DNA of 15,174 nt from a virus: the UHGV virus genome UHGV-1738898; one strand, written 5' to 3'. Below are positions 1-14,028 of the stretch, in pieces; position 1 is the first letter of the stretch; every line of letters starts with the position of its first letter. Position numbers and translations under genes: made by a program. The notes beneath the pieces were generated by a model, which made no database searches, was not told the DNA's origin, and saw only the letters and a program-made list of their open reading frames with translations.

Positions 1-111
1 CTGAGGCAGCACCTGGCACGGCTGGGACGGAAGTCGCTGTCGTTCTCAAAATCGGTGGAGCTGCATGACAAAGTCATCGGGCATTATCTGAACATAAAAC
101 ACTATCAATAA
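1..111 (+). other. 3' end of an ORF entering from upstream of the window (frame 1, stop TAA 109-111); possibly the displaced 5' part of the gpE-like capsid gene
   Basis: Frame 1 is open from position 1 to the TAA at 109-111 ([36 protein letters not shown]). It aligns weakly, in register, with lambda gpE residues about 29-50 (R..S..F...G). The downstream E-like ORF is in frame 3. Confidence 0.3.
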
Positions 112-170
112 GTTGGAGTCATTACCCACGAGATGAGGGATACGAATCAAAAACAATTCGTCCAGGTTAT

Positions 171-965
171 ATGAAGCCGAAAAGCAGCATTGATCCAAAT
201 AAGTTAGCTGTGCGCCCTGCTGGTGTGTCACCTGAGCAATACAATGCTTTTGGGGCGCGTAATATTAAAGTTAAACAGGCGATTGTAAATCAGGCTAAAG
301 CTATTCGTGCACGTATTGAATGGCTTGCTGTTCAGGCAATCACAACGGGGAAAAATATCATTGAGGGCGATGGTATTGAACGTTATGAGCTGGACTGGAA
401 TATAAAACCACAAAATATCATCACTCAGTCTGGCGGTACTGAGTGGTCAGGTAAGGATAAAGAAACTTTTGATCCAAATGATGATATTGAGAGCTACGCA
501 GAATTTAGTGAGGGCGTCACTAATATCATCATTATGGGTGGTAATGTATGGAAGAAATACCGTTCATTCAGAGCGATAAAAGAGGCTTTGGATACCCGTC
601 GTGGTTCTAATTCCGAACTGGAAACGGCCCTTAAAGACCTTGGTGATTCGGTGAGTTTTAAAGGGTATATGGGCGATGTTGCGATTGTTGTTTACAGCGG
701 GCGTTATACCGACGAGGACGGAACAGAAAAACATTTCCTTGATCCTGATTTGATGGTGCTTGGCAATACGGCTCTTCAGGGGATTGTCGCCTATGGCGGT
801 ATTCAGGATCCGGAGCTAATCCGAATGGGGCTGACTAAAGCCGAACTTGCACCGAAAAACTATATTGTGCCTGGTGATCCGGCTATTGAATATGTGCAGA
901 CACATTCAGCACCACAGCCAATACCGGCCCGCATCAATCGTTTTGTTACCGTTCGCATTGGCTAA
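171..965 (+). CDS. Major capsid protein homolog (lambda gpE family), divergent; 5'-incomplete or frameshifted copy covering the equivalent of gpE residues ~78-341
   Basis: The 264-aa ORF aligns along its whole length with the lambda E protein encoded at 6034-7059 in this window (shared blocks ITQSGGTEWS..KDK.T.DP.DDIE.YA, LDTRRGS.SELETA.KDLG, GDVAIVVYSG, MVLGNT, IQD). Similarity continues upstream of the ATG in the same frame (PGYMKPK vs lambda PGYVKPK) until an in-frame TGA at 66-68. No convincing Shine-Dalgarno precedes ATG 171. Confidence 0.65.
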   Translation: MKPKSSIDPNKLAVRPAGVSPEQYNAFGARNIKVKQAIVNQAKAIRARIEWLAVQAITTGKNIIEGDGIERYELDWNIKPQNIITQSGGTEWSGKDKETFDPNDDIESYAEFSEGVTNIIIMGGNVWKKYRSFRAIKEALDTRRGSNSELETALKDLGDSVSFKGYMGDVAIVVYSGRYTDEDGTEKHFLDPDLMVLGNTALQGIVAYGGIQDPELIRMGLTKAELAPKNYIVPGDPAIEYVQTHSAPQPIPARINRFVTVRIG

Positions 966-974
966 GGGGGAGCA

Positions 975-1316
975 ATGGCTACTCATTACACTGAACTCAT
1001 GGCTGGCACTGAAGCACTGGTGACTACGCTGGGGATATTTTCAGCTAATAAAGGGGTAATTCCTGCATTTACGCCACTGATGCAGGAAGATGCAACAGGT
1101 GCACTGGTGGTATGGGATGGTTCGAGCGTAGGTAAAGCGGTTTATGTTTCCGCTGTACAAATCGACACCGCGAAAAAAATACAGGCTCAGGTCTATAAGA
1201 CAGGTGTCTTAAATGTTGATGCTCTGAACTGGCCTGAGTCTGTTAAAGAACTGTCAGTAAAGGTTGCAGCGTTTGTTGGCTCAGGTATTTCTGTTCAGCC
1301 GCTGGCTCGTGTGTAA
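975..1316 (+). CDS. Head decoration protein homolog (lambda gpD family), divergent
   Basis: The 113-aa ORF has a strong RBS (GGGGGAG, 966-972). It aligns with lambda D encoded at 5647-5979 (THY near the N-terminus; PAFTPLMQEDATGALVVWDG vs [20 protein letters not shown]; VYKTG...WPE vs FYKSG...WPE; AF.G..IS near the C-terminus). Confidence 0.7.
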   Translation: MATHYTELMAGTEALVTTLGIFSANKGVIPAFTPLMQEDATGALVVWDGSSVGKAVYVSAVQIDTAKKIQAQVYKTGVLNVDALNWPESVKELSVKVAAFVGSGISVQPLARV

Positions 1317-1327
1317 AGGGGGATACA

Positions 1328-1711
1328 ATGCAGAATGATTACAATGACCTTAAGCCAATTGCCGAAATGATGTACCCGAATCCAGCTGTAGAGGAATTAA
1401 AAGCTATCGCTGACAAAATGTGTTTAAGCGAGCGCCTTGTTGATATGAATCAGGTGATGGAAATTACAACCCTGAGTCGTCGTACACTGCTAAACCTTGA
1501 GGCTAGTGGAGAGTTCCCGGAGCGTGTGCAGGTTACGGAAGGGCGTAAGGCCTGGTATTTAAGTGAAGTGATCGACTGGATAAATAATATTCCTCGCGCT
1601 TCTGAATATTGCCGCGTACCTGTCCCAAAAAAGCCAGATGCGGCGCTATGCCTCAAGATTGAGCGTGTACGCCGCAATGCACGGGATGGTCGCTATAAGC
1701 TGATTGGTTGA
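1328..1711 (+). CDS. AlpA/excisionase-family winged-HTH DNA-binding protein with N- and C-terminal extensions
   Basis: The 127-aa ORF has a strong RBS (AGGGGGA). Its central segment LVDMNQVMEITTLSRRTLLNLEASGEFPERVQVTEGRKAWYLSEVIDWI matches the AlpA family pattern (LSRxTIYxLxxxGxFPxPVxLGxRxVxWxxSEIxxWI). Confidence 0.7.
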   Translation: MQNDYNDLKPIAEMMYPNPAVEELKAIADKMCLSERLVDMNQVMEITTLSRRTLLNLEASGEFPERVQVTEGRKAWYLSEVIDWINNIPRASEYCRVPVPKKPDAALCLKIERVRRNARDGRYKLIG

Positions 1712-1736
1712 TGAAATTAGGGCCCGCTCTGGCTGG

Positions 1737-1801
1737 CGGGTCCTTTCCGGTGATCCGGTAGGCTACGGGGCGGCGACCTCGCGGGTTTTCGCTATTTATG
1801 A
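1737..1801. other. cos: Lambda-type cohesive-end site (cosQ/cosN region); the 12-nt cohesive-end sequence GGGCGGCGACCT lies at 1768-1779
   Basis: CGGGTCCTTTCCGGTGATCCG...TACGGGGCGGCGACCTCGCGGGTTTTCGCTATTTATGA matches my recollection of the lambda right-end/left-end junction (ACGGGTCCTTTCCGGTGATCCGACAGGTTACG | GGGCGGCGACCTCGCGGGTTTTCGCTATTTATGAAAATTTTCC). There are a few mismatches just left of cosN and complete divergence after ...TATTTATGA. It sits in the 200-bp gap between the AlpA-like gene and the Nu1-like gene, 134 bp upstream of the latter. Confidence 0.8.
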
Positions 1802-1912
1802 GCCTTTTTCGGGTGCTGGTGGTGGTTTTGTTGTTCGCTCTATCTCTATGAATAAAAAGGAAAAGATAAAGCCAATACACCAACCTGAAACATTACTTAA
1901 GTGGGGATATTG
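1802..1912. promoter_or_regulatory. Putative divergent cosB (small-terminase binding region) between cosN and the Nu1-like gene
   Basis: This is the position equivalent to lambda cosB (R3-I1-R2-R1), but the sequence is unrelated to the lambda R sites (CGTTTCC-type). It contains short repeats (GGTGGTGG, TTGTTGTT, CTCTATCTCTAT) and an A-rich tract. The call rests on position only. Confidence 0.3.
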
Positions 1913-2455
1913 ATGAAATCGCACCTGATGAACAAAAAAAACATGGCGCAAAGCTGCCGTGTAAGTGCGACAGCGTTCGACAAGTGGGGAGTGACTCCCG
2001 TTGAACGTAAAGGCCGCGAGGCGTTTTATGATGTTGCCAGCGTAATAGACAATCGGGTTAGCAATGCAATTAACCAGATTACAGACGACAAAGGCGAGAT
2101 TGATGATGATGAACTCCTACGAGTCAGGATCAGATTGCTGACAGCACAGGCAGAGGCGCAGGAGCTTAAAAACGAGCGCGAACGCGGCGACGTTATTGAT
2201 ACAGCGTTTTGTATATACGTGCTTTCAAAATTGGCGAGTCAGATTTCTTCAATCATGGACAGCCTGCCGCTTGCCATGACAAGGAAGTTTCCCGACATGA
2301 AGCCGTCTATGCTGGATGGACTGAAAAAAGAAGTTATCAGAGCCTGTAACGCATGCGCAAAACTTGACGAAAACATACCGCTGATGCTGTCCGATTATCT
2401 GATGGAAACTGCCGGAAACGTACCGGATAAGTTGCAGCCGAATAAAGATAAGTAA
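1913..2455 (+). CDS. Terminase small subunit, lambda Nu1 family; N-terminal DNA-binding domain divergent, C-terminal half conserved
   Basis: ATG 1913 is preceded by GGGGA (1903-1907); the ORF track shows an upstream GTG at 1901. The C-terminal region RLLTAQAEAQELKNERERGDVIDTAFCIYVLSKLASQISSIMDSLPLAMTRKFPD closely matches lambda Nu1 (RLTRAQADAQELKNARDSAEVVETAFCTFVLSRIAGEIASILDGLPLSVQRRFPE, from memory). The N-terminus is only loosely similar (NKK, YD.A.VI). Confidence 0.8.
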   Translation: MKSHLMNKKNMAQSCRVSATAFDKWGVTPVERKGREAFYDVASVIDNRVSNAINQITDDKGEIDDDELLRVRIRLLTAQAEAQELKNERERGDVIDTAFCIYVLSKLASQISSIMDSLPLAMTRKFPDMKPSMLDGLKKEVIRACNACAKLDENIPLMLSDYLMETAGNVPDKLQPNKDK

Positions 2456-2466
2456 CGTAGTACGCT

Positions 2467-2748
2467 ATGACTGAATCCGAAATACTGCGATTAATCCGCC
2501 GTGCTTGTGGAATCAGCAAGCAGCATGACGAACAGGCCACGCAGCCGGACAGCGTGACCGCAGATAATTATGTGCGTGTAGTGGCTGAGGTGATGCGCCG
2601 TGACGGTATTGAGCTTAACGGCGTGGATATGCGCAACATACGAACAAGAGTCCTTGAGTTGCTGGCATATCGTCGCCGTTCTCAACAACGGAGGGAGAGC
2701 GCGAAAAATACTTACCAGTGGAAGAAGCCGGAACGATTGCGGCGGTAA
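2467..2748 (+). CDS. Hypothetical 93-aa protein with an arginine/lysine-rich C-terminus; sits where the large-terminase gene A would start in lambda
   Basis: Intact ORF 12 bp after the Nu1-like stop, with a weak RBS. It has no recognisable similarity to the lambda gpA N-terminus or any family I can name. C-terminal tail RRRSQQRRESAKNTYQWKKPERLRR. Confidence 0.4.
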   Translation: MTESEILRLIRRACGISKQHDEQATQPDSVTADNYVRVVAEVMRRDGIELNGVDMRNIRTRVLELLAYRRRSQQRRESAKNTYQWKKPERLRR

Positions 2749-2763
2749 CTTGCTGATATTCCC

Positions 2764-2788
2764 GATAACGCAAAATTGCGCTGGCTGA
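2764..2788. repeat. 25-bp direct repeat, copy 1 (GATAACGCAAAATTGCGCTGGCTGA), containing an inverted repeat CGCAA-aa-TTGCG
   Basis: Matches 2950-2974 at 22 of 25 positions. A second small dyad TTGCA-t-TGCAA lies at 2793-2803. Confidence 0.6.
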
Positions 2789-2949
2789 CTTGTTGCATTG
2801 CAAAAAGTTAAGCAGGAAGGCACGGCCTGTAAGATGGGATGCAGTAAGTAGTTCAAGGCTACCTTGTGCTGGCACGCACAGTTAAGCCGTCGGTGCTGGA
2901 TATCCCCCACTGGGGGAAAAGCTGGCTACATCCCTCACATCTGAGGACT

Positions 2950-2974
2950 GATAACGCGACATTGCGCTGGCTGG
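2950..2974. repeat. 25-bp direct repeat, copy 2 (GATAACGCGACATTGCGCTGGCTGG)
   Basis: Matches 2764-2788 at 22 of 25 positions. It is followed at 2979-2992 by the inverted repeat GTGCAA-aa-TTGCAC. Confidence 0.6.
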
Positions 2975-2999
2975 CAAAGTGCAAAATTGCACGATGGCC

Positions 3000-3161
3000 T
3001 AACCCATTGATTATTTCGAAAACCTGCAATGCAGGAAATCGGGGAAGTAAGCCTAAGCTATTGATTGTTTCGAAAACCCCCATTGGGGGATGTCGGGAAA
3101 GTAAGACTAACCCATTGATTCTTCCACAATCCTCAATTTGAGGAGGCCGGAACGTCTACAT
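3000..3161. repeat. Three tandem ~54-bp units, each carrying a perfect 13-bp 6-1-6 dyad at the same phase (3023-3035 CCTGCAATGCAGG; 3077-3089 CCCCCATTGGGGG; 3131-3143 CCTCAATTTGAGG)
   Basis: Units 1 and 2 (3000-3053, 3054-3107) are about 78% identical by my count. Unit 3 starts with the same 13 nt (TAACCCATTGATT) and then degenerates, but keeps a perfect dyad exactly 54 bp after the previous one. Arm substitutions between dyads are mirrored so symmetry is preserved. A related dyad CCCCCACTGGGGG lies at 2904-2916. Confidence 0.7.
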
Positions 3162-3428
3162 AGCTGCATCGCCGTAATGATGATTCAGCCCACCAGCCAA
3201 ATCAGCACAGCAACGACAGAATAGCCCGACACAGAAAAACCACGAATATGGGGTTTTTGTTATGACATGGTCATGATGACCACTCATACAAAACAGGTAA
3301 AGCCCACCAGCCTGATTAAAGGTTAACCGGAAAAAAGCCAGGTATCCAATCTCGATATGGGGATCCCTATATCGACATTAACGCCCACTAAAACTGTGCA
3401 TATATGCATAGAAAAAGCATCCACCAGC

Positions 3429-3520
3429 TTTATGACGGATGCCGCTCATCTTATAAATAATCGTGTATTGCAGTGTGTATTGCGACTCCTTTAAACGATA
3501 GGTCTGAGCATTCGTAATGT
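3429..3520 (+). promoter_or_regulatory. AT-rich region with sigma70-like promoter candidates upstream of the truncated B fragment
   Basis: Candidate 1: TTTATG (3429-3434), 17-bp spacer, TATAAA (3452-3457). Candidate 2: TTAAAC (3491-3496), 18-bp spacer, TAATGT (3515-3520). Hexamer matching by eye only. Confidence 0.2.
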
Positions 3521-3563
3521 ACTGTTTTTAAATTTTATTTTTTCCTGTCTTTTCATAAAGGCG

Positions 3564-4337
3564 ATGTATGCCGCCACCATTGAAAGTGAGCTGGATACGC
3601 AGTCAGCGATGGATTTTATTCTGGGCGCGAACAGTCAGGAGCAGCGGGAAAGGCTGACGGGCTGGATTGGTGAAATTGCCGCGTATTACGCTGCAGCACC
3701 GGTCCGTCTGGGAGGCGCAAAAGTGCCGCACCTGATGCCGGGGGACTCACTGAACCTGCAGACGGCTCAGGACACGGATAACGGCTACTCCGTGTTTGAG
3801 CAGTCACTGTTGCGGTATATCGCTGCCGGGCTGGGTGTCTCGTATGAGCAGCTTTCCCGGAATTACGCCCAGATGAGCTACTCCACGGCACGGGCCAGTG
3901 CGAACGAGTCGTGGGCGTACTTTATGGGGCGGCGAAAATTCGTCGCATCCCGTCAGGCGAGCCAGATGTTTCTGTGCTGGCTGGAAGAGGCCATCGTTCG
4001 CCGCGTGGTGACGTTACCTTCAAAAGCGCGCTTCAGCTTTCAGGAAGCCCGCAGTGCCTGGGGGAACTGCGACTGGATAGGCTCCGGTCGTATGGCCATC
4101 GATGGTCTGAAAGAAGTTCAGGAAGCGGTGATGCTGATAGAAGCCGGACTGAGCACCTACGAGAAAGAGTGCGCGAAACGCGGTGACGACTATCAGGAAA
4201 TTTTTGCCCAGCAGGTCCGTGAAACGATGGAGCGCCGTGCAACCGGTCTTAAACCGCCCGCCTGGGCGGCTGCGGCATTTGAATCCGGACTGCGACAATC
4301 AACAGAGGAGGAGAAGAGTGACAGCAGAGCTGCGTAA
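3564..4337 (+). pseudogene. B: Portal protein gpB, 3' fragment only (C-terminal 257 codons, equivalent to lambda B residues ~277-533)
   Basis: The ORF (MYAATIESELDTQSAMDFILGANSQEQRERLTGWIGEIAAYYAAAP...AAAFESGLRQSTEEEKSDSRAA) matches the C-terminal half of lambda B as I recall it. An in-frame stop lies at 3492-3494. DNA upstream of ~3555 is AT-rich, non-coding and unlike lambda. The first approximately 276 codons of B are absent from the window. Confidence 0.85.
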
Positions 4338-5637
4338 TCTCCCGCATATTGCCAGCATGGCTTTTAATGAGCCGCTGATGCTTGAACCCGCCTATGCGCG
4401 GGTTTTCTTTTGTGCGCTTGCAGGCCAGCTTGGGATCAGCCGCCTGACGGATGCAGTATCCGGCGACAGCCTGACTGCCGGAGAGGCACCCGCGGCGCTG
4501 GCGTTATCCGGTGATGATGACGGACCACGACAGGCCCGCAGTTATCAGGTCATGAACGGCATCGCCGTGCTGCCGGTGTCCGGTACGCTGGTCAGCCGGA
4601 CGCGGGCGCTGCAGCCGTATTCGGGAATGACCGGTTACAACGGCATTATCGCCCGTCTGCAACAGGCTGCCAGCGATCCGATGGTGGACGGCATTCTGCT
4701 GGATATGGACACACCGGGCGGGATGGTGGCGGGAGCATTTGACTGTGCTGACATCATCGCCCGTGTGCGAGACATAAAACCGGTATGGGCGCTGGCCAAC
4801 GACATGAACTGCAGTGCAGGTCAGCTGCTTGCCAGCGCCGCCTCCCGGCGTCTGGTCACGCAGACCGCCCGGACAGGCTCCATCGGCGTCATGATGGCTC
4901 ACAGTAATTACGGTGCTGCGCTGGAGAAACAGGGCGTGGAAATCACGCTGATTTACAGCGGCAGCCATAAGGTGGATGGCAACCCCTACAGCCATCTACC
5001 GGATGATGTCCGGGAAACACTGCAGTCCCGGATGGATGCAACCCGCCGGATGTTTGCACAGAAGGTGTCGGCATATACCGGCCTGTCCGTGCAGGCTGTG
5101 CTGGATACCGAGGCTGCAGTGTACAGCGGTCAGGAGGCCATTGATGCCGGACTGGCTGATGAACTTGTGAACAGTACCGATGCGATCACCGTCATGCGTG
5201 ATGCACTGGATGCACGTAAATCCCGTCTCTCAGGAGGGCGAATGACCAAAGAGACTCAATCAACAACTGTTTCAGCCACTGCTTCGCAGGCTGACGTTAC
5301 TGGCGTGGTGCAAGCGACGGAGGGCGAGAACGCCAGCGCTGCGCAGCCGGACGTGAACGCGCAGATCACCGCAGCGGTTGCGGCAGAAAACAGTCGCATT
5401 ATGGGGATCCTCAACTGTGAGGAGGCTCACGGACGCGAAGAACAGGCATGCGTGCTGGCCGAAACCCCCGGTATGACCGTGGAAACGGCCCGCCGTATTC
5501 TGGCCGCAGCACCACAGAGTGCACAGGCGCGCAGTGACACTGCGCTGGATCGTCTGATGCAGGGGGCACCGGCACCGCTGGCTGCAGGTAACCCGGCATC
5601 TGATGCCGTTAACGATTTGCTGAACACACCAGTGTAA
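4318..5637 (+). CDS. C: Head protease / minor capsid protein gpC (S49 ClpP-like peptidase family), GTG start
   Basis: The translation from GTG 4318 (VTAELRNLPHIASMAFNEPLMLEPAYARVFF...) matches lambda C over its 439 aa. The start overlaps the B stop by 20 bp, as in lambda. The ORF-track start at 4183 is an in-frame upstream extension inside B. Confidence 0.9.
   Translation: MTAELRNLPHIASMAFNEPLMLEPAYARVFFCALAGQLGISRLTDAVSGDSLTAGEAPAALALSGDDDGPRQARSYQVMNGIAVLPVSGTLVSRTRALQPYSGMTGYNGIIARLQQAASDPMVDGILLDMDTPGGMVAGAFDCADIIARVRDIKPVWALANDMNCSAGQLLASAASRRLVTQTARTGSIGVMMAHSNYGAALEKQGVEITLIYSGSHKVDGNPYSHLPDDVRETLQSRMDATRRMFAQKVSAYTGLSVQAVLDTEAAVYSGQEAIDAGLADELVNSTDAITVMRDALDARKSRLSGGRMTKETQSTTVSATASQADVTGVVQATEGENASAAQPDVNAQITAAVAAENSRIMGILNCEEAHGREEQACVLAETPGMTVETARRILAAAPQSAQARSDTALDRLMQGAPAPLAAGNPASDAVNDLLNTPV
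5032..5637 (+). CDS. nu3: Scaffolding protein Nu3, in-frame internal start within C
   Basis: In-frame ATG at 5032 (MDATRRMFAQKV...) at the position corresponding to lambda Nu3, sharing the stop of C. Called from established lambda gene structure. Confidence 0.7.
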   Translation: MDATRRMFAQKVSAYTGLSVQAVLDTEAAVYSGQEAIDAGLADELVNSTDAITVMRDALDARKSRLSGGRMTKETQSTTVSATASQADVTGVVQATEGENASAAQPDVNAQITAAVAAENSRIMGILNCEEAHGREEQACVLAETPGMTVETARRILAAAPQSAQARSDTALDRLMQGAPAPLAAGNPASDAVNDLLNTPV

Positions 5638-5646
5638 GGGATGTTT

Positions 5647-5979
5647 ATGACGAGCAAAGAAACCTTTACCCATTACCAGCCGCTGGGCAACAGTGACCCG
5701 GCTCATACCGCAACCGCGCCCGGCGGATTGAGTGCGAAAGCGCCTGCAATGACCCCGCTGATGCTGGACACCTCCACCCGTAAGCTGGTTGCGTGGGATG
5801 GCACCACCGACGGTGCTGCCGTTGGCATTCTTGCAGTTGCTGCTGACCAGACCAGCACCACACTGACGTTCTACAAGTCCGGCACGTTCCGTTATGAGGA
5901 TGTGCTCTGGCCGGAGGCTGCCAGCGACGAGACGAAAAAACGGACCGCGTTTGCCGGAACGGCAATCAGCATCGTTTAA
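5647..5979 (+). CDS. D: Head decoration protein gpD
   Basis: [42 protein letters not shown]...FAGTAISIV matches lambda D (110 aa). The ORF-track start at 5641 adds two upstream in-frame codons. Confidence 0.9.
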
Positions 5980-6000
5980 CTTTACCCTTCATCACTAAAG

Positions 6001-6020
6001 GCCGCCTGTGCGGCTTTTTT
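6001..6020 (+). terminator. GC stem-loop followed by a T-run in the D-E intergenic region (terminator-like hairpin)
   Basis: GCCGC (6001-6005), loop CTGT, GCGGC (6010-6014), then TTTTTT (6015-6020). The stem is short, so it may act as an RNA stability or processing element rather than an efficient terminator. Confidence 0.3.
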
Positions 6021-6033
6021 ACGGGATTTTTTT

Positions 6034-7059
6034 ATGTCGATGTACACAACCGCCCAGCTGCTGGCGGCAAATGAGCAGAAATTTAAGTTTGATCCGCTGT
6101 TTCTGCGTCTCTTTTTCCGTGAGAGCTATCCCTTCACTACGGAGAAAGTCTATCTCTCACAAATTCCGGGACTGGTAAACATGGCGCTGTACGTTTCGCC
6201 GATTGTTTCCGGTGAGGTTATCCGTTCCCGTGGCGGCTCCACCTCTGAATTTACGCCGGGATATGTCAAACCCAAGCATGAAGTGAATCCGCAGATGACC
6301 CTGCGTCGCCTGCCGGATGAAGATCCGCAGAATCTGGCGGACCCGGCTTACCGCCGCCGTCGCATCATCATGCAGAACATGCGTGACGAAGAGCTGGCCA
6401 TTGCTCAGGTCGAAGAGATGCAGGCAGTTTCTGCCGTGCTCAAGGGCAAATACACCATGACCGGTGAAGCCTTCGATCCGGTTGAGGTGGATATGGGCCG
6501 CAGTGCGGCGAACAACATCACGCAGTCCGGCGGCACGGAGTGGAGCAAGCGTGACAAGTCCACGTATGACCCGACCGACGATATCGAAGCCTACGCGCTG
6601 AACGCCAGCGGCGTGGTGAATATCATCGTGTTTGACCCGAAAGGCTGGGCGCTGTTCCGTTCCTTCAAAGCCGTCAGGGAGAAGCTGGATACCCGTCGCG
6701 GCTCTCATTCCGAACTGGAGACAGCGGTAAAAGACCTGGGCAAAGCGGTGTCTTATAAGGGAATGTATGGCGATGTGGCCATCGTCGTGTATTCCGGACA
6801 GTACGTGGAAAACGGTGTCAAAAAGAACTTCCTGCCGGACAACACGATGGTGCTGGGTAACACTCATGCACGCGGTCTGCGCACCTATGGCTGTATTCAG
6901 GATGCGGATGCATTGAGTGAGGGTATTAATGCGTCTCCCCGTTATCCGAAAAACTGGAAGACATCCGGCGATCCGGCGCGAGAGTTCACCATGATTCAGT
7001 CAGCACCGCTGATGCTGCTGGCTGATCCTGATGAGTTCGTGTCCGTTCAACTGGCGTAA
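6034..7059 (+). CDS. E: Major capsid protein gpE
   Basis: The 341-aa ORF beginning MSMYTTAQLLAANEQKFKFDPLFLRLFFRESYPFTTEKVYLSQIPGLVNMALYVSPIVSGEVIRSRGG... matches lambda E essentially end to end. Confidence 0.95.
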   Translation: MSMYTTAQLLAANEQKFKFDPLFLRLFFRESYPFTTEKVYLSQIPGLVNMALYVSPIVSGEVIRSRGGSTSEFTPGYVKPKHEVNPQMTLRRLPDEDPQNLADPAYRRRRIIMQNMRDEELAIAQVEEMQAVSAVLKGKYTMTGEAFDPVEVDMGRSAANNITQSGGTEWSKRDKSTYDPTDDIEAYALNASGVVNIIVFDPKGWALFRSFKAVREKLDTRRGSHSELETAVKDLGKAVSYKGMYGDVAIVVYSGQYVENGVKKNFLPDNTMVLGNTHARGLRTYGCIQDADALSEGINASPRYPKNWKTSGDPAREFTMIQSAPLMLLADPDEFVSVQLA

Positions 7060-7061
7060 TC

Positions 7062-7085
7062 ATGGCCCTTAGGGGCCATTTTCTC
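7062..7085 (+). terminator. Stem-loop plus T/C-rich tail in the E-FI intergenic region
   Basis: ATGGCCC (7062-7068), loop TTAG, GGGCCAT (7073-7079), followed by TTTTCT. Structure only; function unverified. Confidence 0.25.
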
Positions 7086-7100
7086 TCTGTGGAGGAGTCC

Positions 7101-7496
7101 ATGACGAAAGATGAACTGATTGCCCGTCTCCGGTCGCTGGGTGAGCAACTGAACCGTGATGTCAGCCTGACGGGGACGAAAGAAGAACTGGCGCTCCGTG
7201 TGGCAGAGCTGGAAGAGGAGCTTGATGACAAGGATGACGCAGCCGGTCAGGACACGTCTGTCAGCCCGGAAAATGCGCTGACCGGACATGAAAATGAGGT
7301 GGTATCAGCACAGACGGATACCGTGACTGATACGGCTGTTCTGGTCACGGTTGTGGCACTGGTGACGCTGCATACCGATGCACTTCACGCCACGCGGGAT
7401 GAGGCTGTGGCATTTGTGCTGCCGGGAACGGCGTTCCGTGTCTCTGCCGGTGTGGCAGCCGAAATGACAGAACGTGGCCTGGCCAGAATGCAATAA
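7101..7496 (+). CDS. FI: DNA-packaging / head assembly protein gpFI
   Basis: ATG 7101 is preceded by GGAGGAG. MTKDELIARLRSLGEQLNRDVSLTGTKEELALRVAEL... and ...HTDALHATRDEAVAFVLPGTAFRVSAGVAAEMTERGLARMQ match lambda FI. The central linker differs from what I recall of lambda. Confidence 0.9.
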   Translation: MTKDELIARLRSLGEQLNRDVSLTGTKEELALRVAELEEELDDKDDAAGQDTSVSPENALTGHENEVVSAQTDTVTDTAVLVTVVALVTLHTDALHATRDEAVAFVLPGTAFRVSAGVAAEMTERGLARMQ

Positions 7497-7507
7497 CGGG
7501 AGGCGCT

Positions 7508-7861
7508 GTGGCTGATTTCGATAACCTGTTCGATGCTGCCATTGCCCGCGCTGATGAAACGATACGCGGGTACATGGGAACGTCAGCCACCATGACATCC
7601 GGTGAGCAGTCCGGTGCTGTGATACGTGGTGTTTTTGATGACCCTGAAAATATCAGCTATGCCGGACAGGGCGTGCGCGTTGAAGGCTCCAGCCCGTCCC
7701 TGTTTGTCCGGACTGATGATGTGCGGCAGCTGCGGCGCGGCGACACGCTGACCATCGGTGAGGAAAACTTCTGGATAGACCGGATTTCGCCGGATGATGG
7801 CGGAAGCTGTCATCTCTGGCTTGGGCGGGGCGTACCGCCTGCCGTTAACCGTCGCCGCTGA
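7508..7861 (+). CDS. FII: Head-tail joining protein gpFII (GTG start)
   Basis: MADFDNLFDAAIARADETIRGYMGTSATMTSGEQSGAVIRGVFDDPENISYAGQGVRVEG... matches lambda FII (117 aa). Confidence 0.9.
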   Translation: MADFDNLFDAAIARADETIRGYMGTSATMTSGEQSGAVIRGVFDDPENISYAGQGVRVEGSSPSLFVRTDDVRQLRRGDTLTIGEENFWIDRISPDDGGSCHLWLGRGVPPAVNRRR

Positions 7862-7872
7862 AAGGGGGATGT

Positions 7873-8451
7873 ATGGCCATAAAAGGTCTTGAGCAGGCCA
7901 TTGAAAACCTCAGCCGTATCAGCAAAACGGCGGTGCCTGGTGCCGCCGCAATGGCCATTAACCGCGTTGCTTCATCCGCGATATCGCAGTCGGCGTCACA
8001 GGTTGCCCGTGAGACAAAGGTACGCCGGAAACTGGTAAAGGAAAGGGCCAGGCTGAAAAGGGCCACGGTCAAAAATCCGCAGGCCAGAATCAAAGTTAAC
8101 CGGGGGGATTTGCCCGTAATCAAGCTGGGTAATGCGCGGGTTGTCCTTTCGCGCCGCAGGCGTCGTAAAAAGGGGCAGCGTTCATCCCTGAAAGGTGGCG
8201 GCAGCGTGCTTGTGGTGGGTAACCGTCGTATTCCCGGCGCGTTTATTCAGCAACTGAAAAATGGCCGGTGGCATGTCATGCAGCGTGTGGCCGGGAAAAA
8301 CCGTTACCCCATTGATGTGGTGAAAATCCCGATGGCGGTGCCGCTGACCACGGCGTTTAAACAAAATATTGAGCGGATACGGCGTGAACGTCTTCCGAAA
8401 GAGCTGGGCTATGCGCTGCAGCATCAACTGAGGATGGTAATAAAGCGATGA
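7873..8451 (+). CDS. Z: Tail completion protein gpZ
   Basis: The 192-aa ORF MAIKGLEQAIENLSRISKTAVPGAAAMAINRVASSAISQ... matches lambda Z. Its stop overlaps the U start (ATGA). Confidence 0.9.
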   Translation: MAIKGLEQAIENLSRISKTAVPGAAAMAINRVASSAISQSASQVARETKVRRKLVKERARLKRATVKNPQARIKVNRGDLPVIKLGNARVVLSRRRRRKKGQRSSLKGGGSVLVVGNRRIPGAFIQQLKNGRWHVMQRVAGKNRYPIDVVKIPMAVPLTTAFKQNIERIRRERLPKELGYALQHQLRMVIKR

Positions 8452-8843
8452 AACATACTGAACTCCGTGCAGCCATACTGGATGCACTGGAGAAGCATGA
8501 CACCGGGGCGACGTTTTTTGATGGTCGCCCCGCTGTTTTTGATGAGGCGGATTTTCCGGCAGTTGCCGTTTATCTCACCGGCGCTGAATACACGGGCGAA
8601 GAGCTGGACAGCGATACCTGGCAGGCGGAGCTGCATATCGAAGTTTTCCTGCCTGCTCAGGTGCCGGATTCAGAGCTGGATGCGTGGATGGAGTCCCGGA
8701 TTTATCCGGTGATGAGCGATATCCCGGCACTGTCAGATTTGATCACCAGTATGGTGGCCAGCGGCTATGACTACCGGCGCGACGATGATGCGGGCCTGTG
8801 GAGTTCAGCCGATCTGACTTATGTCATTACCTATGAAATGTGA
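8448..8843 (+). CDS. U: Tail tube terminator protein gpU
   Basis: The 131-aa [55 protein letters not shown]... matches lambda U. Confidence 0.9.
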
Positions 8844-8850
8844 GGACGCT

Positions 8851-9591
8851 ATGCCTGTACCAAATCCTACAATGCCGGTGAAAGGTGCCGGGACCACCCT
8901 GTGGGTTTATAAGGGGAGCGGTGACCCTTATGCGAATCCGCTTTCAGACGTTGACTGGTCGCGTCTGGCAAAAGTTAAAGACCTGACGCCCGGCGAACTG
9001 ACCGCTGAGTCCTATGACGACAGCTATCTCGATGATGAAGATGCAGACTGGACTGCGACCGGGCAGGGGCAGAAATCTGCCGGAGATACCAGCTTCACGC
9101 TGGCGTGGATGCCCGGAGAGCAGGGGCAGCAGGCGCTGCTGGCGTGGTTTAATGAAGGCGATACCCGTGCCTATAAAATCCGCTTCCCGAACGGCACGGT
9201 CGATGTGTTCCGTGGCTGGGTCAGCAGTATCGGTAAGGCGGTGACGGCGAAGGAAGTGATCACCCGCACGGTGAAAGTCACCAATGTGGGACGTCCGTCG
9301 ATGGCAGAAGATCGCAGCACGGTAACAGCGGCAACCGGCATGACCGTGACGCCTGCCAGCACCTCGGTGGTGAAAGGGCAGAGCACCACGCTGACCGTGG
9401 CCTTCCAGCCGGAGGGCGTAACCGACAAGAGCTTTCGTGCGGTGTCTGCGGATAAAACAAAAGCCACCGTGTCGGTCAGTGGTATGACCATCACCGTGAA
9501 CGGCGTTGCTGCAGGCAAGGTCAACATTCCGGTTGTATCCGGTAATGGTGAGTTTGCTGCGGTTGCAGAAATTACCGTCACCGCCAGTTAA
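8851..9591 (+). CDS. V: Major tail tube protein gpV (with C-terminal Ig-like domain)
   Basis: From ATG 8851 the translation [36 protein letters not shown]... matches lambda V (246 aa). The ORF-track start at 8821 is an upstream in-frame extension overlapping the end of U. Confidence 0.9.
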
Positions 9592-9606
9592 TCCGGAGAG
9601 TCAGCG

Positions 9607-10029
9607 ATGTTCCTGAAAACCGAATCATTTGAACATAACGGTGTGACCGTCACGCTTTCTGAACTGTCAGCCCTGCAGCGCATTGAGCATCTCGCCCTGA
9701 TGAAACGGCAGGCAGAACAGGCGGAGTCAGACAGCAACCGGAAGTTTACTGTGGAAGACGCCATCAGAACCGGCGCGTTTCTGGTGGCGATGTCCCTGTG
9801 GCATAACCATCCGCAGAAGACGCAGATGCCGTCCATGAATGAAGCCGTTAAACAGATTGAGCAGGAAGTGCTTACCACCTGGCCCACGGAGGCAATTTCT
9901 CATGCTGAAAACGTGGTGTACCGGCTGTCTGGTATGTATGAGTTTGTGGTGAATAATGCCCCTGAACAGACAGAGGACGCCGGGCCCGCAGAGCCTGTTT
10001 CTGCGGGAAAGTGTTCGACGGTGAGCTGA
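9607..10029 (+). CDS. G: Tail assembly chaperone gpG
   Basis: The 140-aa ORF MFLKTESFEHNGVTVTLSELSALQRIEHLALMKRQAEQAESDSNRKFTVEDAIRTGAFLV... matches lambda G. Confidence 0.9.
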   Translation: MFLKTESFEHNGVTVTLSELSALQRIEHLALMKRQAEQAESDSNRKFTVEDAIRTGAFLVAMSLWHNHPQKTQMPSMNEAVKQIEQEVLTTWPTEAISHAENVVYRLSGMYEFVVNNAPEQTEDAGPAEPVSAGKCSTVS

Positions 10030-10445
10030 GTTTTGCCCTGAAACTGGCGCGTGAGATGGGGCGACCCGACTGGCGTGCCATGCTTGCCGGGATGTCATCC
10101 ACGGAGTATGCCGACTGGCACCGCTTTTACAGTACCCATTATTTTCATGATGTTCTGCTGGATATGCACTTTTCCGGGCTGACGTACACCGTGCTCAGCC
10201 TGTTTTTCAGCGATCCGGATATGCATCCGCTGGATTTCAGTCTGCTGAACCGGCGCGAGGCTGACGAAGAGCCTGAAGATGATGTGCTGATGCAGAAAGC
10301 GGCAGGGCTTGCCGGAGGTGTCCGCTTTGGCCCGGACGGGAATGAAGTTATCCCCGCTTCCCCGGATGTGGCGGACATGACGGAGGATGACGTAATGCTG
10401 ATGACAGTATCAGAAGGGATCGCAGGAGGAGTCCGGTATGGCTGA
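9607..10445 (+). CDS. T: Tail assembly chaperone fusion gpG-T, made by programmed -1 ribosomal frameshift at 10005-10011
   Basis: The slippery heptamer G GGA AAG sits at 10005-10011 in the G frame. The -1 frame continues as VFDGELSFALKLAREMGRPDWRAMLAGMSSTEYADWHRFYSTHYF... to the TGA at 10443-10445, matching the lambda T portion. Confidence 0.8.
10005..10011 (+). promoter_or_regulatory. Programmed -1 frameshift slippery site (GGGAAAG) for G/G-T
   Basis: Heptamer in the X XXY YYZ configuration relative to the G frame, near the end of G, with the T ORF open in the -1 frame. Confidence 0.8.
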
Positions 10446-12999
10446 ACCGGTAGGCGATCTGGTCGTTGATTTAAGTCTGGATGCGGCCAGATTTGACGAG
10501 CAGATGGCCAGAGTCAGGCGTCATTTTTCCGGTACGGAAAGTGATGCGAAAAAAACAGCGGCAGTCGTTGAACAGTCGCTGAGCCGACAGGCGCTGGCTG
10601 CACAGAAAGCGGGGATTTCCGTCGGGCAGTATAAAGCCGCCATGCGTATGCTGCCTGCACAGTTCACCGACGTGGCCACGCAGCTTGCAGGCGGGCAAAG
10701 TCCGTGGCTGATCCTGCTGCAACAGGGGGGGCAGGTGAAGGACTCCTTCGGCGGGATGATCCCCATGTTCAGGGGGCTTGCCGGTGCGATCACCCTGCCG
10801 ATGGTGGGGGCCACCTCGCTGGCGGTGGCGACCGGTGCGCTGGCGTATGCCTGGTATCAGGGCAACTCAACCCTGTCCGATTTCAACAAAACGCTGGTCC
10901 TTTCCGGCAATCAGGCGGGACTGACGGCAGATCGTATGCTGGTCCTGTCCAGAGCCGGGCAGGCGGCAGGGCTGATGTTTAACCAGACCAGCGAGTCACT
11001 CAGCGCACTGGTTAAGGCGGGGGTAAGCGGTGAGGCTCAGATTGCGTCCATCAGCCAGAGTGTGGCTCGTTTCTCCTCTGCATCCGGCGTGGAGGTGGAC
11101 AAGGTCGCTGAAGCCTTCGGGAAGCTGACCACAGACCCGACGTCGGGGCTGACGGCGATGGCACGCCAGTTCCATAACGTGACGGCGGAGCAGATTGCGT
11201 ATGTTGCTCAGTTGCAGCGTTCCGGCGATGAAGCCGGGGCATTGCAGGCGGCGAACGAGGCCGCAACGAAAGGGTTTGATGACCAGACCCGCCGCCTGAA
11301 AGAGAACATGGGCACGCTGGAGACCTGGGCAGACAGGACTGCGCGGGCCTTCAAATCCATGTGGGATGCGGTGCTGGATATTGGTCGTCCTGATACCGCG
11401 CAGGAGATGCTGATTAAGGCAGAGGCTGCGTTTAAGAAAGCAGACGACATCTGGAATCTGCGCAAGGATGATTATTTTGTTAACGATGAAGCGCGGGCGC
11501 GTTACTGGGATGATCGTGAAAAGGCCCGTCTTGCGCTTGAAGCCGCCCGAAAGAAGGCTGAGCAGCAGACTCAACAGGACAAAAATGCGCAGCAGCAGAG
11601 CGATACCGAAGCGTCACGGCTGAAATATACCGAAGAGGCGCAGAAGGCTTACAAACGGCTGCAGACGCCGCTGGAGAAATATACCGCCCGTCAGGAAGAA
11701 CTGAACAAGGCACTGAAAGACGGGAAAATCCTGCAGGCGGATTACAACACGCTGATGGCGGCGGCGAAAAAGGATTATGAAGCGACGCTGAAAAAGCCGA
11801 AACAGTCCGGCGTGAAGGTGTCTGCGGGCGATCGTCAGGAAGACAGTGCTCATGCTGCCCTGCTGACGCTTCAGGCAGAACTCCGGACGCTGGAGAAGCA
11901 TGCCGGAGCGAATGAGAAAATCAGCCAGCAGCGCCGGGATTTGTGGAAGGCAGAAAGTCAGTTCGCGGTACTGGAGGAGGCGGCACAACGTCGCCAGCTG
12001 TCCGCACAGGAGAAATCCCTGCTGGCGCATAAAGATGAGACGCTGGAGTACAAACGCCAGCTGGCTGCACTTGGCGACAAGGTTACGTATCAGGAGCGCC
12101 TGAACGCGCTGGCGCAGCAGGCGGATAAATTCGCACAGCAGCAACGGGCAAAACGGGCCGCCATTGATGCGAAAAGCCGGGGGCTGACTGACCGGCAGGC
12201 AGAACGGGAAGCCACGGAACAGCGCCTGAAGGAACAGTATGGCGATAATCCGCTGGCGCTGAATAACGTCATGTCAGAGCAGAAAAAGACCTGGGCGGCT
12301 AAAGACCAGCTTCGCGGGAGCTGGATGGCAGGCCTGAAGTCCGGCTGGAGTGAGTGGGAAGAGAGCGCCACGGACAGTATGTCGCAGGTAAAAAGTGCAG
12401 CCACGCAGACCTTTGATGGTATTGCACAGAATATGGCAGCGATGCTGACCGGCAGTGAGCAGAACTGGCGCAGCTTCACCCGTTCCGTGCTGTCCATGAT
12501 GACAGAAATTCTGCTTAAGCAGGCAATGGTGGGGATTGTCGGGAGTATCGGCAGCGCCATTGGCGGGGCTGTTGGTGGCGGCGCATCCGCGTCAGGCGGT
12601 ACAGCCATTCAGGCCGCTGCGGCGAAATTCCATTTTGCAACCGGAGGATTCACAGGAACCGGCGGTAAATATGAGCCAGCGGGGATTGTTCATCGTGGTG
12701 AATTTGTCTTCACGAAGGAGGCAACCAGCCGGATTGGCGTGGGGAATCTTTACCGGCTGATGCGCGGCTATGCCACCGGCGGTTATGTCGGTACACCGGG
12801 CAGCATGGCAGACAGCCGGTCGCAGGCGTCCGGGACGTTTGAGCAGAATAACCATGTGGTGATTAACAACGACGGCACGAACGGGCAGATAGGTCCGGCT
12901 GCTCTGAAGGCAGTGTATGACATGGCCCGCAAGGGTGCCCGTGATGAAATCCAGGCACAGATGCGCGATGGTGGTCTGTTCTCCGGAGGTGGACGATGA
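10438..12999 (+). CDS. H: Tail tape measure protein gpH
   Basis: The 853-aa ORF MAEPVGDLVVDLSLDAARFDEQMARVRRHFSGTESDAKKTAAVVEQ... matches lambda H in length and sequence. Its start overlaps the end of T. Confidence 0.95.
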   Translation: MAEPVGDLVVDLSLDAARFDEQMARVRRHFSGTESDAKKTAAVVEQSLSRQALAAQKAGISVGQYKAAMRMLPAQFTDVATQLAGGQSPWLILLQQGGQVKDSFGGMIPMFRGLAGAITLPMVGATSLAVATGALAYAWYQGNSTLSDFNKTLVLSGNQAGLTADRMLVLSRAGQAAGLMFNQTSESLSALVKAGVSGEAQIASISQSVARFSSASGVEVDKVAEAFGKLTTDPTSGLTAMARQFHNVTAEQIAYVAQLQRSGDEAGALQAANEAATKGFDDQTRRLKENMGTLETWADRTARAFKSMWDAVLDIGRPDTAQEMLIKAEAAFKKADDIWNLRKDDYFVNDEARARYWDDREKARLALEAARKKAEQQTQQDKNAQQQSDTEASRLKYTEEAQKAYKRLQTPLEKYTARQEELNKALKDGKILQADYNTLMAAAKKDYEATLKKPKQSGVKVSAGDRQEDSAHAALLTLQAELRTLEKHAGANEKISQQRRDLWKAESQFAVLEEAAQRRQLSAQEKSLLAHKDETLEYKRQLAALGDKVTYQERLNALAQQADKFAQQQRAKRAAIDAKSRGLTDRQAEREATEQRLKEQYGDNPLALNNVMSEQKKTWAAKDQLRGSWMAGLKSGWSEWEESATDSMSQVKSAATQTFDGIAQNMAAMLTGSEQNWRSFTRSVLSMMTEILLKQAMVGIVGSIGSAIGGAVGGGASASGGTAIQAAAAKFHFATGGFTGTGGKYEPAGIVHRGEFVFTKEATSRIGVGNLYRLMRGYATGGYVGTPGSMADSRSQASGTFEQNNHVVINNDGTNGQIGPAALKAVYDMARKGARDEIQAQMRDGGLFSGGGR

Positions 13000-14023: not shown

Positions 14024-14028
14024 ATCCC

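Follow-up and report, generated by a model that had tools for sequence, protein, structure and literature searches.

A capsid gene very probably cut by IS1, and its intact decoration partner, in a satellite of the HE-PICI group

The window, that is, the whole stretch of 15,174 nucleotides that was analysed, is one entire metagenome contig (ENA ERZ772878, NODE_1136_length_15174). Its 5' end falls inside an IS1, because assemblers break at multi-copy repeats. It holds two nested mobile elements, a phage satellite and the helper prophage around it, plus this one insertion sequence. The features that concern us are the following:

1 to 126, plus strand: right end of IS1 (Pfam, identity to annotated IS1, homology breakpoint at 127)
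127 to 965, plus strand: major capsid protein gene of the gpE family, 3' 839 nt, pseudogene remnant (first base kept is codon 68 position 2; stop included)
975 to 1316, plus strand: head-decoration protein gene of the gpD family, 113 aa, intact (Pfam, PHROG and PDB matches)
1328 to 1711, plus strand: second AlpA-family HTH protein, 127 aa (Pfam Phage_AlpA, E=7.6e-9)
1737 to 1801, plus strand: satellite cos core (94% over 65 bp to the helper prophage cos, N66 L001 8837-8901)
1913 to 2455, plus strand: small terminase subunit of the Nu1 family, 180 aa (Pfam Phage_Nu1, E=3.5e-24, profile 80-162 only)
2467 to 2748, plus strand: 93-aa protein, last satellite gene (PHROG 1561, unknown function, E=1e-55)
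3462 to 3484, plus strand: doubled TGTATTGC motif (cgTGTATTGCagtgTGTATTGCg), with the motif at 3464 and 3476
3558 to 3565, plus strand: attR identity block AAGGCGAT (8-bp core), right boundary of the satellite, where the portal frame resumes
3558 to 4337, plus strand: 3' part of the helper portal gene, the lambda B cognate (Pfam Phage_portal_2)
5647 to 5979, plus strand: helper D (Pfam HDPD, E=4e-22, full length)
6034 to 7059, plus strand: helper E (Pfam Phage_cap_E, E=7.6e-72, full length)

Positions 1 to 1316 very probably consist of the IS1 right end, the capsid gene of a helper-embedded phage-inducible chromosomal island (HE-PICI) cut by that IS1 (a recent and non-functional remnant) and an intact decoration gene.

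An earlier note on this DNA had described the two reading frames at 171-965 and 975-1316 as a second, divergent pair of lambda E-like and D-like genes, and profile searches bear this out. ORF 171-965 (264 aa) matches Pfam Phage_cap_E (PF03864, E=1.2e-32) over profile positions 74-327 of 329, so that the N-terminal truncation claimed in the note stands, while the intact sister capsid matches the same profile at 4-327 (E=2.9e-41). The window copy is only partial on this profile because it is IS1-truncated: it is a family member by descent whose gene is not intact. ORF 975-1316 is preceded by a good ribosome binding site (AAGGGGGAG) and matches Pfam HDPD (PF02924, E=3.7e-14, 53.3 bits, with the cut-off at 29.1, over profile 1-111 of 116), PHROG 49 (head decoration, E=1e-25) and, in the PDB, the decoration proteins of lambda and phage 21. 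Compared with the helper pair of the same window, the intact satellite major capsid protein (MCP) homolog is 41% identical to E and the satellite decoration protein (Dec) 37% identical to D. The E-then-D order, the reverse of the helper's D-then-E, was also read correctly, as was the lambda-type character of the downstream pair, which is 95-99.9% identical at the nucleotide level to 80 records of lambda-like phages. Closer relatives are found in the satellite EcCICFT073, with 55% identity to its MCP homolog (PDB 3BQW) and 54% to its decoration protein; among 50,697 phage records, the closest deposited phage to the satellite MCP reaches at most 42% amino-acid identity.

The broken appearance of the capsid gene had been put down to a frameshift, a truncation or a sequencing error. 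On this reading frame 1-111 carries the 5' part of one E-like gene, and a frameshift or a sequencing error between 60 and 170 disrupts it; an in-frame stop does exist at 66-68 and frame 1-111 is open. This frame, however, is the C-terminus of InsB of IS1 (Pfam DDE_Tnp_IS1, PF03400, E=2.5e-16, profile 96-131 of 131). Positions 1-108 are the last 36 codons of insB; its stop codon occupies 109-111 and the inverted repeat of the IS1 terminus about 104-126, the succession of features expected of an IS1 end. Annotated IS1 copies in phages SfIV, RCS47 and P1 match the stretch 1-126/127 at 100% identity, and in every one of the E. coli homologs of the flanking DNA the match begins at base 127. Moreover, the true N-terminus (MVDLYSPTQ...) is known from intact copies, and the 202 nt of capsid 5' sequence that encode it are absent from the window together with a strong ribosome binding site. 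We therefore give the frameshift reading practically no chance. The capsid gene looks broken because the IS1 at the contig end, cutting inside codon 68, has removed the first 67 codons; the disruption that had been noted is pseudogenisation by IS1 at the edge of a contig, with neither a sequencing error nor a frameshift that needs re-sequencing.

Whether the junction between IS1 and the capsid gene is itself real has to be weighed separately, since it lies about one k-mer length from the contig end: the assembler could have attached a k-mer path from IS1 to an intact satellite, and the capsid gene could be whole in the real genome. The exact junction was found neither in 5,426 complete E. coli genomes nor in GTDB representative genomes, IMG/VR or JGI metagenome contigs. 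Against an assembly artefact, the break coincides exactly with the terminal inverted repeat of IS1, as it would in a true insertion, and real loci flanked by repeats normally leave de Bruijn contigs that extend, as here by 126 nt, into the repeat. According to their records, four more contigs have the same gene neighbourhood, and the junction evidence thus amounts to one assembly, or to five near-identical contigs if these are counted. On balance an artefact is improbable.

Given a true junction, IS1 may simply have inserted, or it may have mediated a deletion or rearrangement in which the remainder of the element was lost; both fit the window equally because it is a complete contig without another IS1 junction. 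A simple insertion would be expected to leave an 8-9 bp target duplication, ...CACGAGATG; a search of JGI metagenome contigs for the junction that it predicts on the other side, in which the capsid 5' part meets the IS1 left end across 0-8 nt, gave no match.

The remnant indicates that the truncation is a recent event, because what remains of the gene has not decayed and shows zero divergence from intact copies. Positions 127-965 are 100% identical to N66 L001 20001-20839, where the intact gene spans 19799-20839. An intact, single-frame E-like gene (346 aa) is present in the same element of other genomes, although not in this contig, the only one in which the truncation was found. A recurrent disruption of the capsid gene was considered and rejected: the exact 264-aa product occurs in 13 contigs, several of them with short ORFs upstream, and in the others the alignment shows single-base homopolymer deletions or runs of N, which are artefacts of sequencing or scaffolding. 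Contigs with such homopolymer errors and N-gaps were recovered because an exact-product look-up selects for a disrupted 5' part.

It had also been suggested that a truncated capsid homolog could act as an assembly decoy. As a rival explanation this would make the 264-aa product an expressed, dominant-negative variant that interferes with helper capsid assembly and has been selected. Its frame is open and 100% identical to the 3' part of the intact gene, and transcription out of IS1 is possible in principle. Translation, however, would have to start at ATG 171, which is Met83 of the intact 346-aa protein and has only a weak, badly spaced AGG four bases upstream (the note had given it no ribosome binding site). 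In addition, the truncation was found in this contig only, and the very recent event carries no sign of selection, while the N-terminal region that was lost is under purifying selection in the intact copies. A selected decoy is accordingly very improbable, and the idea finds no support here; a recent IS1-cut remnant is the reading we retain.

Downstream of the decoration gene lie an AlpA-like gene, cos and a Nu1-like gene. None of the three is the phage's; all are part of the same satellite as the E-like/D-like pair. The product of 1328-1711, which adjoins cos on its upstream side, matches PDB 8C3T of the AlpA family (E=2e-9) and PHROG 2790 (E=1e-49), and has no homology to the 137-aa ORF found at the same place in EcCICFT073. 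The cohesive-end sequence GGGCGGCGACCT is at 1768-1779. In the alignment the satellite cosN is nearly identical to the helper cosN block, whereas the cosB-equivalent region (about 1802-1900) has diverged. The small terminase subunit (TerS), which starts at ATG 1913 (a GTG at 1901 is also possible), matches PHROG 57 (TerS, E=5e-51) over its full length. Its identity to helper Nu1 is 37% overall, with 21 of 67 positions identical across residues 1-70 and 48 of 97 in the remainder; thus the C-terminal half resembles helper Nu1 while the N-terminal DNA-binding part has diverged. A PDB search at E<=1 gave no relative for it, and BLASTP gave no match between it and the Rpp homolog of CFT073. An Rpp identity for either the AlpA-like or the TerS-like ORF was rejected, as neither resembles the Rpp proteins of known structure or the homolog in CFT073. 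No Pfam family matched the 93-aa protein, which shares 76% identity with the ORF that ends EcCICFT073.

On its right side the satellite is delimited by a change in identity as well as by att sequences. From 127 to 3557 the window is 100.000% identical to an element of E. coli N66, and from 3558 onward the identity is 96.9-98.8%; about 3,200 E. coli genomes match the window from 3558 onward only. The same right 3.4 kb of the satellite is 98.9% identical to the element of APEC O2-211. On the 3' side of attR come the 3' part of the helper portal gene, a protease gene and then helper D and E. In both N66 and APEC O2-211 the portal part carries the annotation 'phage portal protein, missing N-terminus', and the satellite sits between the two portal halves on the same strand, its right junction being in the window and its left one in those two genomes. 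When attL is joined to attR at the AAGGCGAT block, a portal ORF of 533 codons is restored.

Published entries of the HE-PICI site group B:Phage_portal_2:241, for example Eco10269.11.B_Phage_portal_2_241, have an identical AAGGCGAT block with identical attL and attR flanks (the reference being Supplementary Files 3 and 4 of PMC10111431). A doubled motif with the consensus tgTGTATTGCantgTGTATTGCa has been reported as unique to HE-PICIs, lying in the attP arms 81±2 bp upstream and 132±2 bp downstream of the centre (PMC10111431). The right-arm copy is in the window, and its left-arm partner is at N66 L001 12660-12683, inside the left end of the element. Between the centre of the core and the start of the latter there are about 132 bp; for the right-arm motif the distance comes to about 78-88 bp, according to the reference point chosen, in only approximate agreement with the published spacing.

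In N66 the intact element is about 10.9 kb long and splits the portal gene that belongs to a lambdoid prophage. The gene order in N66 and APEC O2-211 is int, AlpA, Bro-N, DUF4222, D5-type primase, SSB, MCP, Dec, AlpA-like and TerS, with cos between the last two in the N66 element; int, outside the window, encodes in N66 a tyrosine integrase whose domains are Arm-DNA-bind_3 and Phage_integrase. Gram-negative PICIs are recognized by four ordered zones, a size of about 10-20 kb and unidirectional genes. Both elements conform to this, their zones being, in order, integration (int, AlpA), Bro, replication (primase, SSB) and late. The late zone is the sole satellite zone inside the window and ends at attR (3558). 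Taken together, att sequences, doubled motif, site and gene order place the E-like/D-like pair, the AlpA-like gene, cos and the Nu1-like gene in group B:Phage_portal_2:241 of the HE-PICIs, whose clade as a whole is defined by integrase phylogeny. Cos and the Nu1-like gene are the satellite's because the att sites and the motif match this group, and in annotation the region 1737-2455 should not be taken as the start of a prophage late operon.

Some scans of this part of the window gave nothing further. An Rfam scan of 1-4000 at E<=0.1, which covers P4-type immunity RNAs (C4, isrK) and other RNAs, returned no match, and in a consensus scan of 1-3700 promoter and terminator sites were no more numerous than in shuffled sequence. 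The Bro zone, the reported site of P4-type immunity RNAs, lies outside the window.

A different origin of the pair, as an ordinary second head module left by a second tandem or nested complete phage, would account for MCP, Dec, cos and TerS of phage type in one module. The intact element, however, is only 10.9 kb long and contains no portal, protease, large terminase, head-completion, connector or tail genes in either N66 or APEC O2-211. Its int-AlpA-Bro-primase-late organization and HE-PICI att hallmarks also speak against this origin, and among 50,697 phage records no such module was found inside the complete genome of an autonomous phage. We consider a second head module highly improbable; the sister copies with an intact E-like gene reveal a satellite instead. 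The suggestion of a satellite arrangement thus held as far as a phage satellite acting on its helper's capsid is concerned, and failed in its detail, the element being a PICI and apparently not P4-like. The kind of element is already known, and pseudogenisation by an IS1 is ordinary.

To follow selection on the late genes we compared intact copies, since the 264-aa capsid part is identical in the window, N66 and copy L002 and a dN/dS ratio computed from it is uninformative; the APEC O2-211 copy and the 5' codons of L002 were used instead. Over MCP codons 1-83 (the 5' 83 codons of L002) there are 19 synonymous and 3 nonsynonymous differences. Against APEC O2-211, Dec has 7 synonymous and 2 nonsynonymous differences, and the AlpA-like gene 19 and 6. 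These counts indicate that the intact MCP, N-terminal region included, is under purifying selection and, with the distance from phage proteins, that the satellite pair is a satellite-specific lineage under the same constraint. In this subgroup the pair is always accompanied by cos and a private Nu1-type TerS.

The sequences suggest how such an element would use its helper. Helper late transcription would read into the satellite, following the published HE-PICI model (PMC10111431), and Int with AlpA would excise it, restoring the portal gene. The satellite primase-helicase and SSB would then replicate the satellite DNA. The helper large terminase would be expected to cut the satellite cos, whose cosN matches the helper's, under the guidance of the satellite TerS, whose C-terminal half is Nu1-like; the N-terminal DNA-binding part of this protein and the satellite cosB differ from those of the helper. 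Until the satellite excises, the helper portal gene stays broken, and the locus is one more case of a published satellite class. Induction-type experiments have been published for the related elements 11capE (PMC10111431) and EcCICFT073 (PMC6092414).

As for the capsid and decoration proteins, the pair would most likely supply subunits for the capsids in which the satellite travels. In EcCICFT073, single deletion of the capsid or the decoration gene did not relieve interference with lambda, and packaging yielded DNA of phage size (PMC6092414). PICI capsid genes have been reported not to be required for transfer. A bolder view is that these HE-PICIs build the shells of their transducing particles from their own MCP and Dec while portal, scaffold, protease and large terminase come from the helper, and that capsid size may be altered; we think this rather unlikely. 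If it were true, these elements would be 'half capsid-forming', intermediate between classical PICIs and the capsid-forming PICIs (cf-PICIs), and the IS1-cut copy would be a natural knockout of the own-shell function. Capsid and decoration homologs are widely conserved among PICIs.

Among known systems, the closest is the HE-PICI site group B:Phage_portal_2:241 itself (Tommasini, Mageeney & Williams 2023, NAR Genom Bioinform, PMC10111431), with which the element shares the attR flank, the AAGGCGAT block, the doubled TGTATTGC motif, a length of about 11 kb, co-oriented insertion in the lambda B cognate and the four zones. It differs in that the late-zone capsid gene of the window copy is cut by IS1 and the contig lacks the left part of the element. 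The Nu1-like TerS is absent from the main text of PMC10111431, where the founding element 11capE is described as lacking terS.

In EcCICFT073, the model Gram-negative PICI, c1499 encodes a capsid protein and c1500 a head decoration protein (Fillol-Salom et al. 2018, PMC6092414), and PDB 3BQW is the crystal structure of this CFT073 MCP homolog. The late zone is built alike, with MCP, Dec, a small ORF, cos, a packaging-specificity gene and the 93-aa ORF, the E-like gene preceding the D-like one and the same cosN at a syntenic place. However, EcCICFT073 is chromosomal, next to phoQ, while the window satellite is inside a prophage, and in EcCICFT073 cos is followed by an Rpp (RppC, PDB 6HLK family, E=5e-31) where the window satellite has a full Nu1-type TerS.

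With lambda gpE and gpD the pair shares PF03864 and PF02924, and the intact satellite MCP aligns to gpE over its full length at 41-42% identity; unlike the lambda genes, the satellite pair is in reversed order and has no adjacent portal, protease or scaffold gene. P4 likewise carries capsid-acting satellite genes near cos, and the arrangement had been said to recall its Psu and Sid; the proteins show no sign of homology in a Pfam profile scan, where the two ORFs gave Phage_cap_E and HDPD, respectively, and no other family at E<=0.01, and the element has PICI organization and a lambdoid helper instead of a P2-like one. SaPIbov5 Ccm and the cf-PICIs offer a functional analogy from the literature, in that there, too, the helper's major capsid protein of HK97 fold has a homolog among the satellite's own proteins. 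Ccm redirects the capsid size of the helper, whereas EcCICFT073 DNA is packaged at phage size; and cf-PICIs encode a complete head module and take only tails from the helper, whereas this element encodes MCP, Dec and TerS alone.

The DNA of window 127-3557 belongs to an element that is found intact in Escherichia coli N66 and APEC O2-211, with the genes listed here.

Gene order of the intact element
Integrase (Arm-DNA-bind_3 and Phage_integrase domains, by domain assignment), then AlpA
Bro-N protein, YlcI/YnfO, Icd-like protein
DUF4222, D5-type primase-helicase, SSB
Major capsid protein (MCP), 346 aa; decoration protein (Dec), 113 aa
AlpA-like HTH protein, small terminase subunit (TerS), 93-aa ORF

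The element, 10,908 bp long in N66, is flanked by the two halves of the portal gene of a lambdoid prophage, the helper, whose own cos, Nu1, A and W lie upstream and whose protease, D, E and tail genes lie downstream. Window 127-15174 is collinear with the N66 locus. The left and right junctions have the block AAGGCGAT in common, within the portal reading frame, and joining them restores a portal ORF of 533 codons. Identity to N66 is 100.000% over 127-3557 and 96.9-98.8% from base 3558 on; this drop exactly at 3558 is an independent mark of the boundary and sets the satellite apart from the helper as a separate mobile unit. The cos site and the AlpA gene that had been assigned to the phage are part of the satellite. 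Among 5,426 complete E. coli genomes, about 60 share this attL and attR, an uninterrupted portal target is present in about 3,200, and 366 contain the MCP-Dec-AlpA-like-cos module.

Both the element and its gene pair have been published before. Helper-embedded PICIs (HE-PICIs) insert, in the orientation of their targets, into cognates of late genes of lambda; five sites, in genes A, B, C and E, account for 97% of them (Tommasini, Mageeney and Williams 2023, PMC10111431). Group B:Phage_portal_2:241 consists of 11-kb E. coli elements with the identity block 'aaggcgat' (supplementary attL/attR of the same paper). The published attL and attR of this group are the same sequences as the N66 left junction and window 3508-3590. 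The doubled HE-PICI-specific motif tgTGTATTGCantgTGTATTGCa is found at 3462-3484 and again inside the N66 left end, about 132 bp from the core, in agreement with the publication. In the same paper the most frequent late gene of Gram-negative PICIs is a capsid gene (21/29 reference elements). A sister satellite (GCA_900448615.1, 2412-14578), whose Dec and capsid 3' part are identical, sits in the helper capsid gene E (published type E:Phage_cap_E:80), and in it opposite-strand genes with GmrSD_N domains, candidate anti-phage defence cargo, replace TerS.

Window 1-1316 contains two ORFs, 171-965 and 975-1316. The first matches Phage_cap_E (Pfam, E=1.2e-32) over profile positions 74-327 of 329 only, and the second matches HDPD, the gpD family (E=3.7e-14), so that the E-like/D-like pair proposed in the earlier note is real, as are its inverted order and the truncation of the E-like gene. 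The note had put the disruption of this gene down to a frameshift or truncation, or to a sequencing error, with what looked like the preceding part of the protein in frame 1-111. That frame is indeed open, and a stop lies in frame at 66-68, ahead of ORF 171-965. We found, however, that the 36 residues encoded by 1-108 are the C-terminus of IS1 transposase (DDE_Tnp_IS1, positions 96-131 of 131, E=2.5e-16), that bases 1-126, which end with the terminal inverted repeat of IS1 as read from the sequence, match IS1 annotated in several records of phages and plasmid-prophages at 100% identity, and that in all E. coli homologs of the adjoining DNA the match starts exactly at base 127. For these reasons frame 1-111 is IS1 InsB and not capsid, and the E-like gene was cut by IS1 without any frameshift. 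Since the satellite capsid gene starts 202 nt ahead of base 127, the cut lies inside codon 68. ATG 171 is Met83 of the intact MCP, whose true start and strong AAGAGGA ribosome-binding site, by alignment with intact copies, fall in the absent part. Because the remnant matches intact copies at 100% identity, the IS1 event is recent; simple IS1 insertion and IS1-mediated deletion look alike from this window. The IS1 truncation is ordinary pseudogenisation. The suggestion that the truncated homolog acts as an assembly decoy is not supported.

The window is an entire contig (ENA ERZ772878 NODE_1136_length_15174), which runs into a multi-copy IS for about the length of one k-mer and then ends, as assemblies of real IS-flanked loci usually do. 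The IS1/capsid junction was not found in the 5,426 complete E. coli genomes, GTDB representatives or IMG/VR, nor was the predicted opposite junction in JGI metagenome contigs. That the junction is chimeric seems to us very improbable, given this type of ending and a break precisely at the IS1 end. Other contigs giving the same 264-aa product were rejected as disruptions, being artefacts of homopolymer deletions or N gaps.

Among deposited phages, no protein surpasses about 42% identity to the satellite MCP, and nucleotide matches to them are confined to a 135-nt patch of E; the helper D-E pair, in contrast, shares 95-99.9% identity with lambda-like phages. This makes the satellite pair a separate lineage carried by satellites, as opposed to one captured recently. 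The earlier proposal of a satellite with capsid-related genes holds. The likeness to P4 Psu/Sid is not supported, Pfam having given only Phage_cap_E and HDPD for the two ORFs at E<=0.01. Synonymous and nonsynonymous differences between copies number 19 and 3 in MCP codons 1-83, 7 and 2 in Dec, and 19 and 6 in the AlpA-like gene. N66 and APEC O2-211 encode the same MCP protein, with flanking prophage DNA 2-5% different. These genes are under purifying selection. We prefer the inference that MCP and Dec contribute subunits to the shells carrying the satellite, because a matching decoration protein is easiest to understand if the satellite MCP truly enters a lattice; the strong version, in which the satellite builds the shells, we consider unlikely. 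A total of 4 x 10.9 kb, about 44 kb, agrees with lambda packaging limits for a full-size head, and small capsids are therefore not required. The remaining interest lies in the function of PICI capsid and decoration homologs.

The region 1737-1801 shares 94% identity with the cos of the helper prophage, located some 11 kb upstream in N66, and includes the cohesive-end sequence GGGCGGCGACCT at 1768-1779. The alignment decays directly downstream, at the place of cosB in lambda-type phages. Satellite TerS and helper Nu1 are 37% identical overall, with 21/67 identical positions in residues 1-70 and 48/97 in the remainder. In lambda TerS the N-terminal winged-helix domain binds cosB and the C-terminal half binds TerL, and PICI cos sites retain helper-like cosQ and cosN, not cosB (review PMC9026076). 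The window cos and Nu1-like gene belong to the satellite. The pattern of divergence, together with these domain roles, suggests that satellite TerS would bring the helper large terminase to the satellite's own cosB.

Several other features were observed. Of the 38 differences between the window and the APEC O2-211 satellite, 37 lie within one patch of about 580 bp (1169-1751, APEC O2-211 14043-14625) that runs from the 3' end of Dec across the AlpA-like gene into the first part of the cos region; outside it the MCP remnant, TerS and the 93-aa ORF are 100% identical. It looks like a recombination patch, which may swap the AlpA-like gene among satellites. Just 3' of the 93-aa ORF, a 24-nt direct repeat, GATAACGCrAmATTGCGCTGGCTG, occurs at about 2764-2787 and 2950-2973 (N66 22638 and 22824), 186 bp apart; it includes the short palindrome GCGCAAT.TTGCG and could be a protein-binding site. 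The satellite's non-coding right arm of about 800 bp contains three tandem 54-nt units (2997-3158, + strand; N66 22871-23032), each with TTTCGAAAAC as its conserved flank and, after it, a hairpin with a 5 bp stem and a 3-nt loop, the stem varying among units yet staying paired (CCTGCAATGCAGG / CCCCCATTGGGGG / CCTCAATTTGAGG). The units had no Rfam match and a non-significant RNA fold z-score (-1.6). The helper's FI packaging gene is intact in the window (7101-7496), where it encodes 131 aa, and in N66 (26976-27371) it is an annotated pseudogene with an internal stop. The serum-survival gene iss, which the helper-type prophage carries between its cos and the lysis genes (N66 7003-7296; CFT073 region L011 37881-38174), is ordinary moron cargo outside the window.

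The model PICI EcCICFT073 has the order MCP (351 aa), Dec (111 aa), 137-aa ORF, cosN, 144-aa ORF, 93-aa ORF, phoQ. Given this synteny, the order with E before D, the proximity to cos and the adjacent AlpA-like gene are the standard late-zone layout of these PICIs.

Window genes compared with EcCICFT073
MCP: 55% identity
Dec: 54% identity
93-aa ORF: 76% identity
Two cos-flanking genes: not homologous

The closest solved structure to the satellite MCP, PDB 3BQW (E=1e-121), is the CFT073 protein itself, as the printed fragments of the two agree fully under the same residue numbering. Single deletion of the EcCICFT073 capsid or decoration gene did not restore lambda plaque formation, and DNA was packaged at phage size (Fillol-Salom et al., PMC6092414), which rules out size redirection in that element. 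Before cos, the window has the AlpA-like HTH gene and EcCICFT073 a 137-aa protein without recognised similarity. The syntenic slot after cos is held in EcCICFT073 (L011 2660-3094) by Rpp, the family of the 144-aa ORF (PDB 6HLK, E=5e-31), whereas in the window it is held by a full-length Nu1-type TerS (1913-2455; PHROG 57, E=5e-51; Pfam Nu1). Thus compared, the cos-flanking genes behave as an exchangeable packaging-specificity cassette amid conserved MCP, Dec and 93-aa genes.
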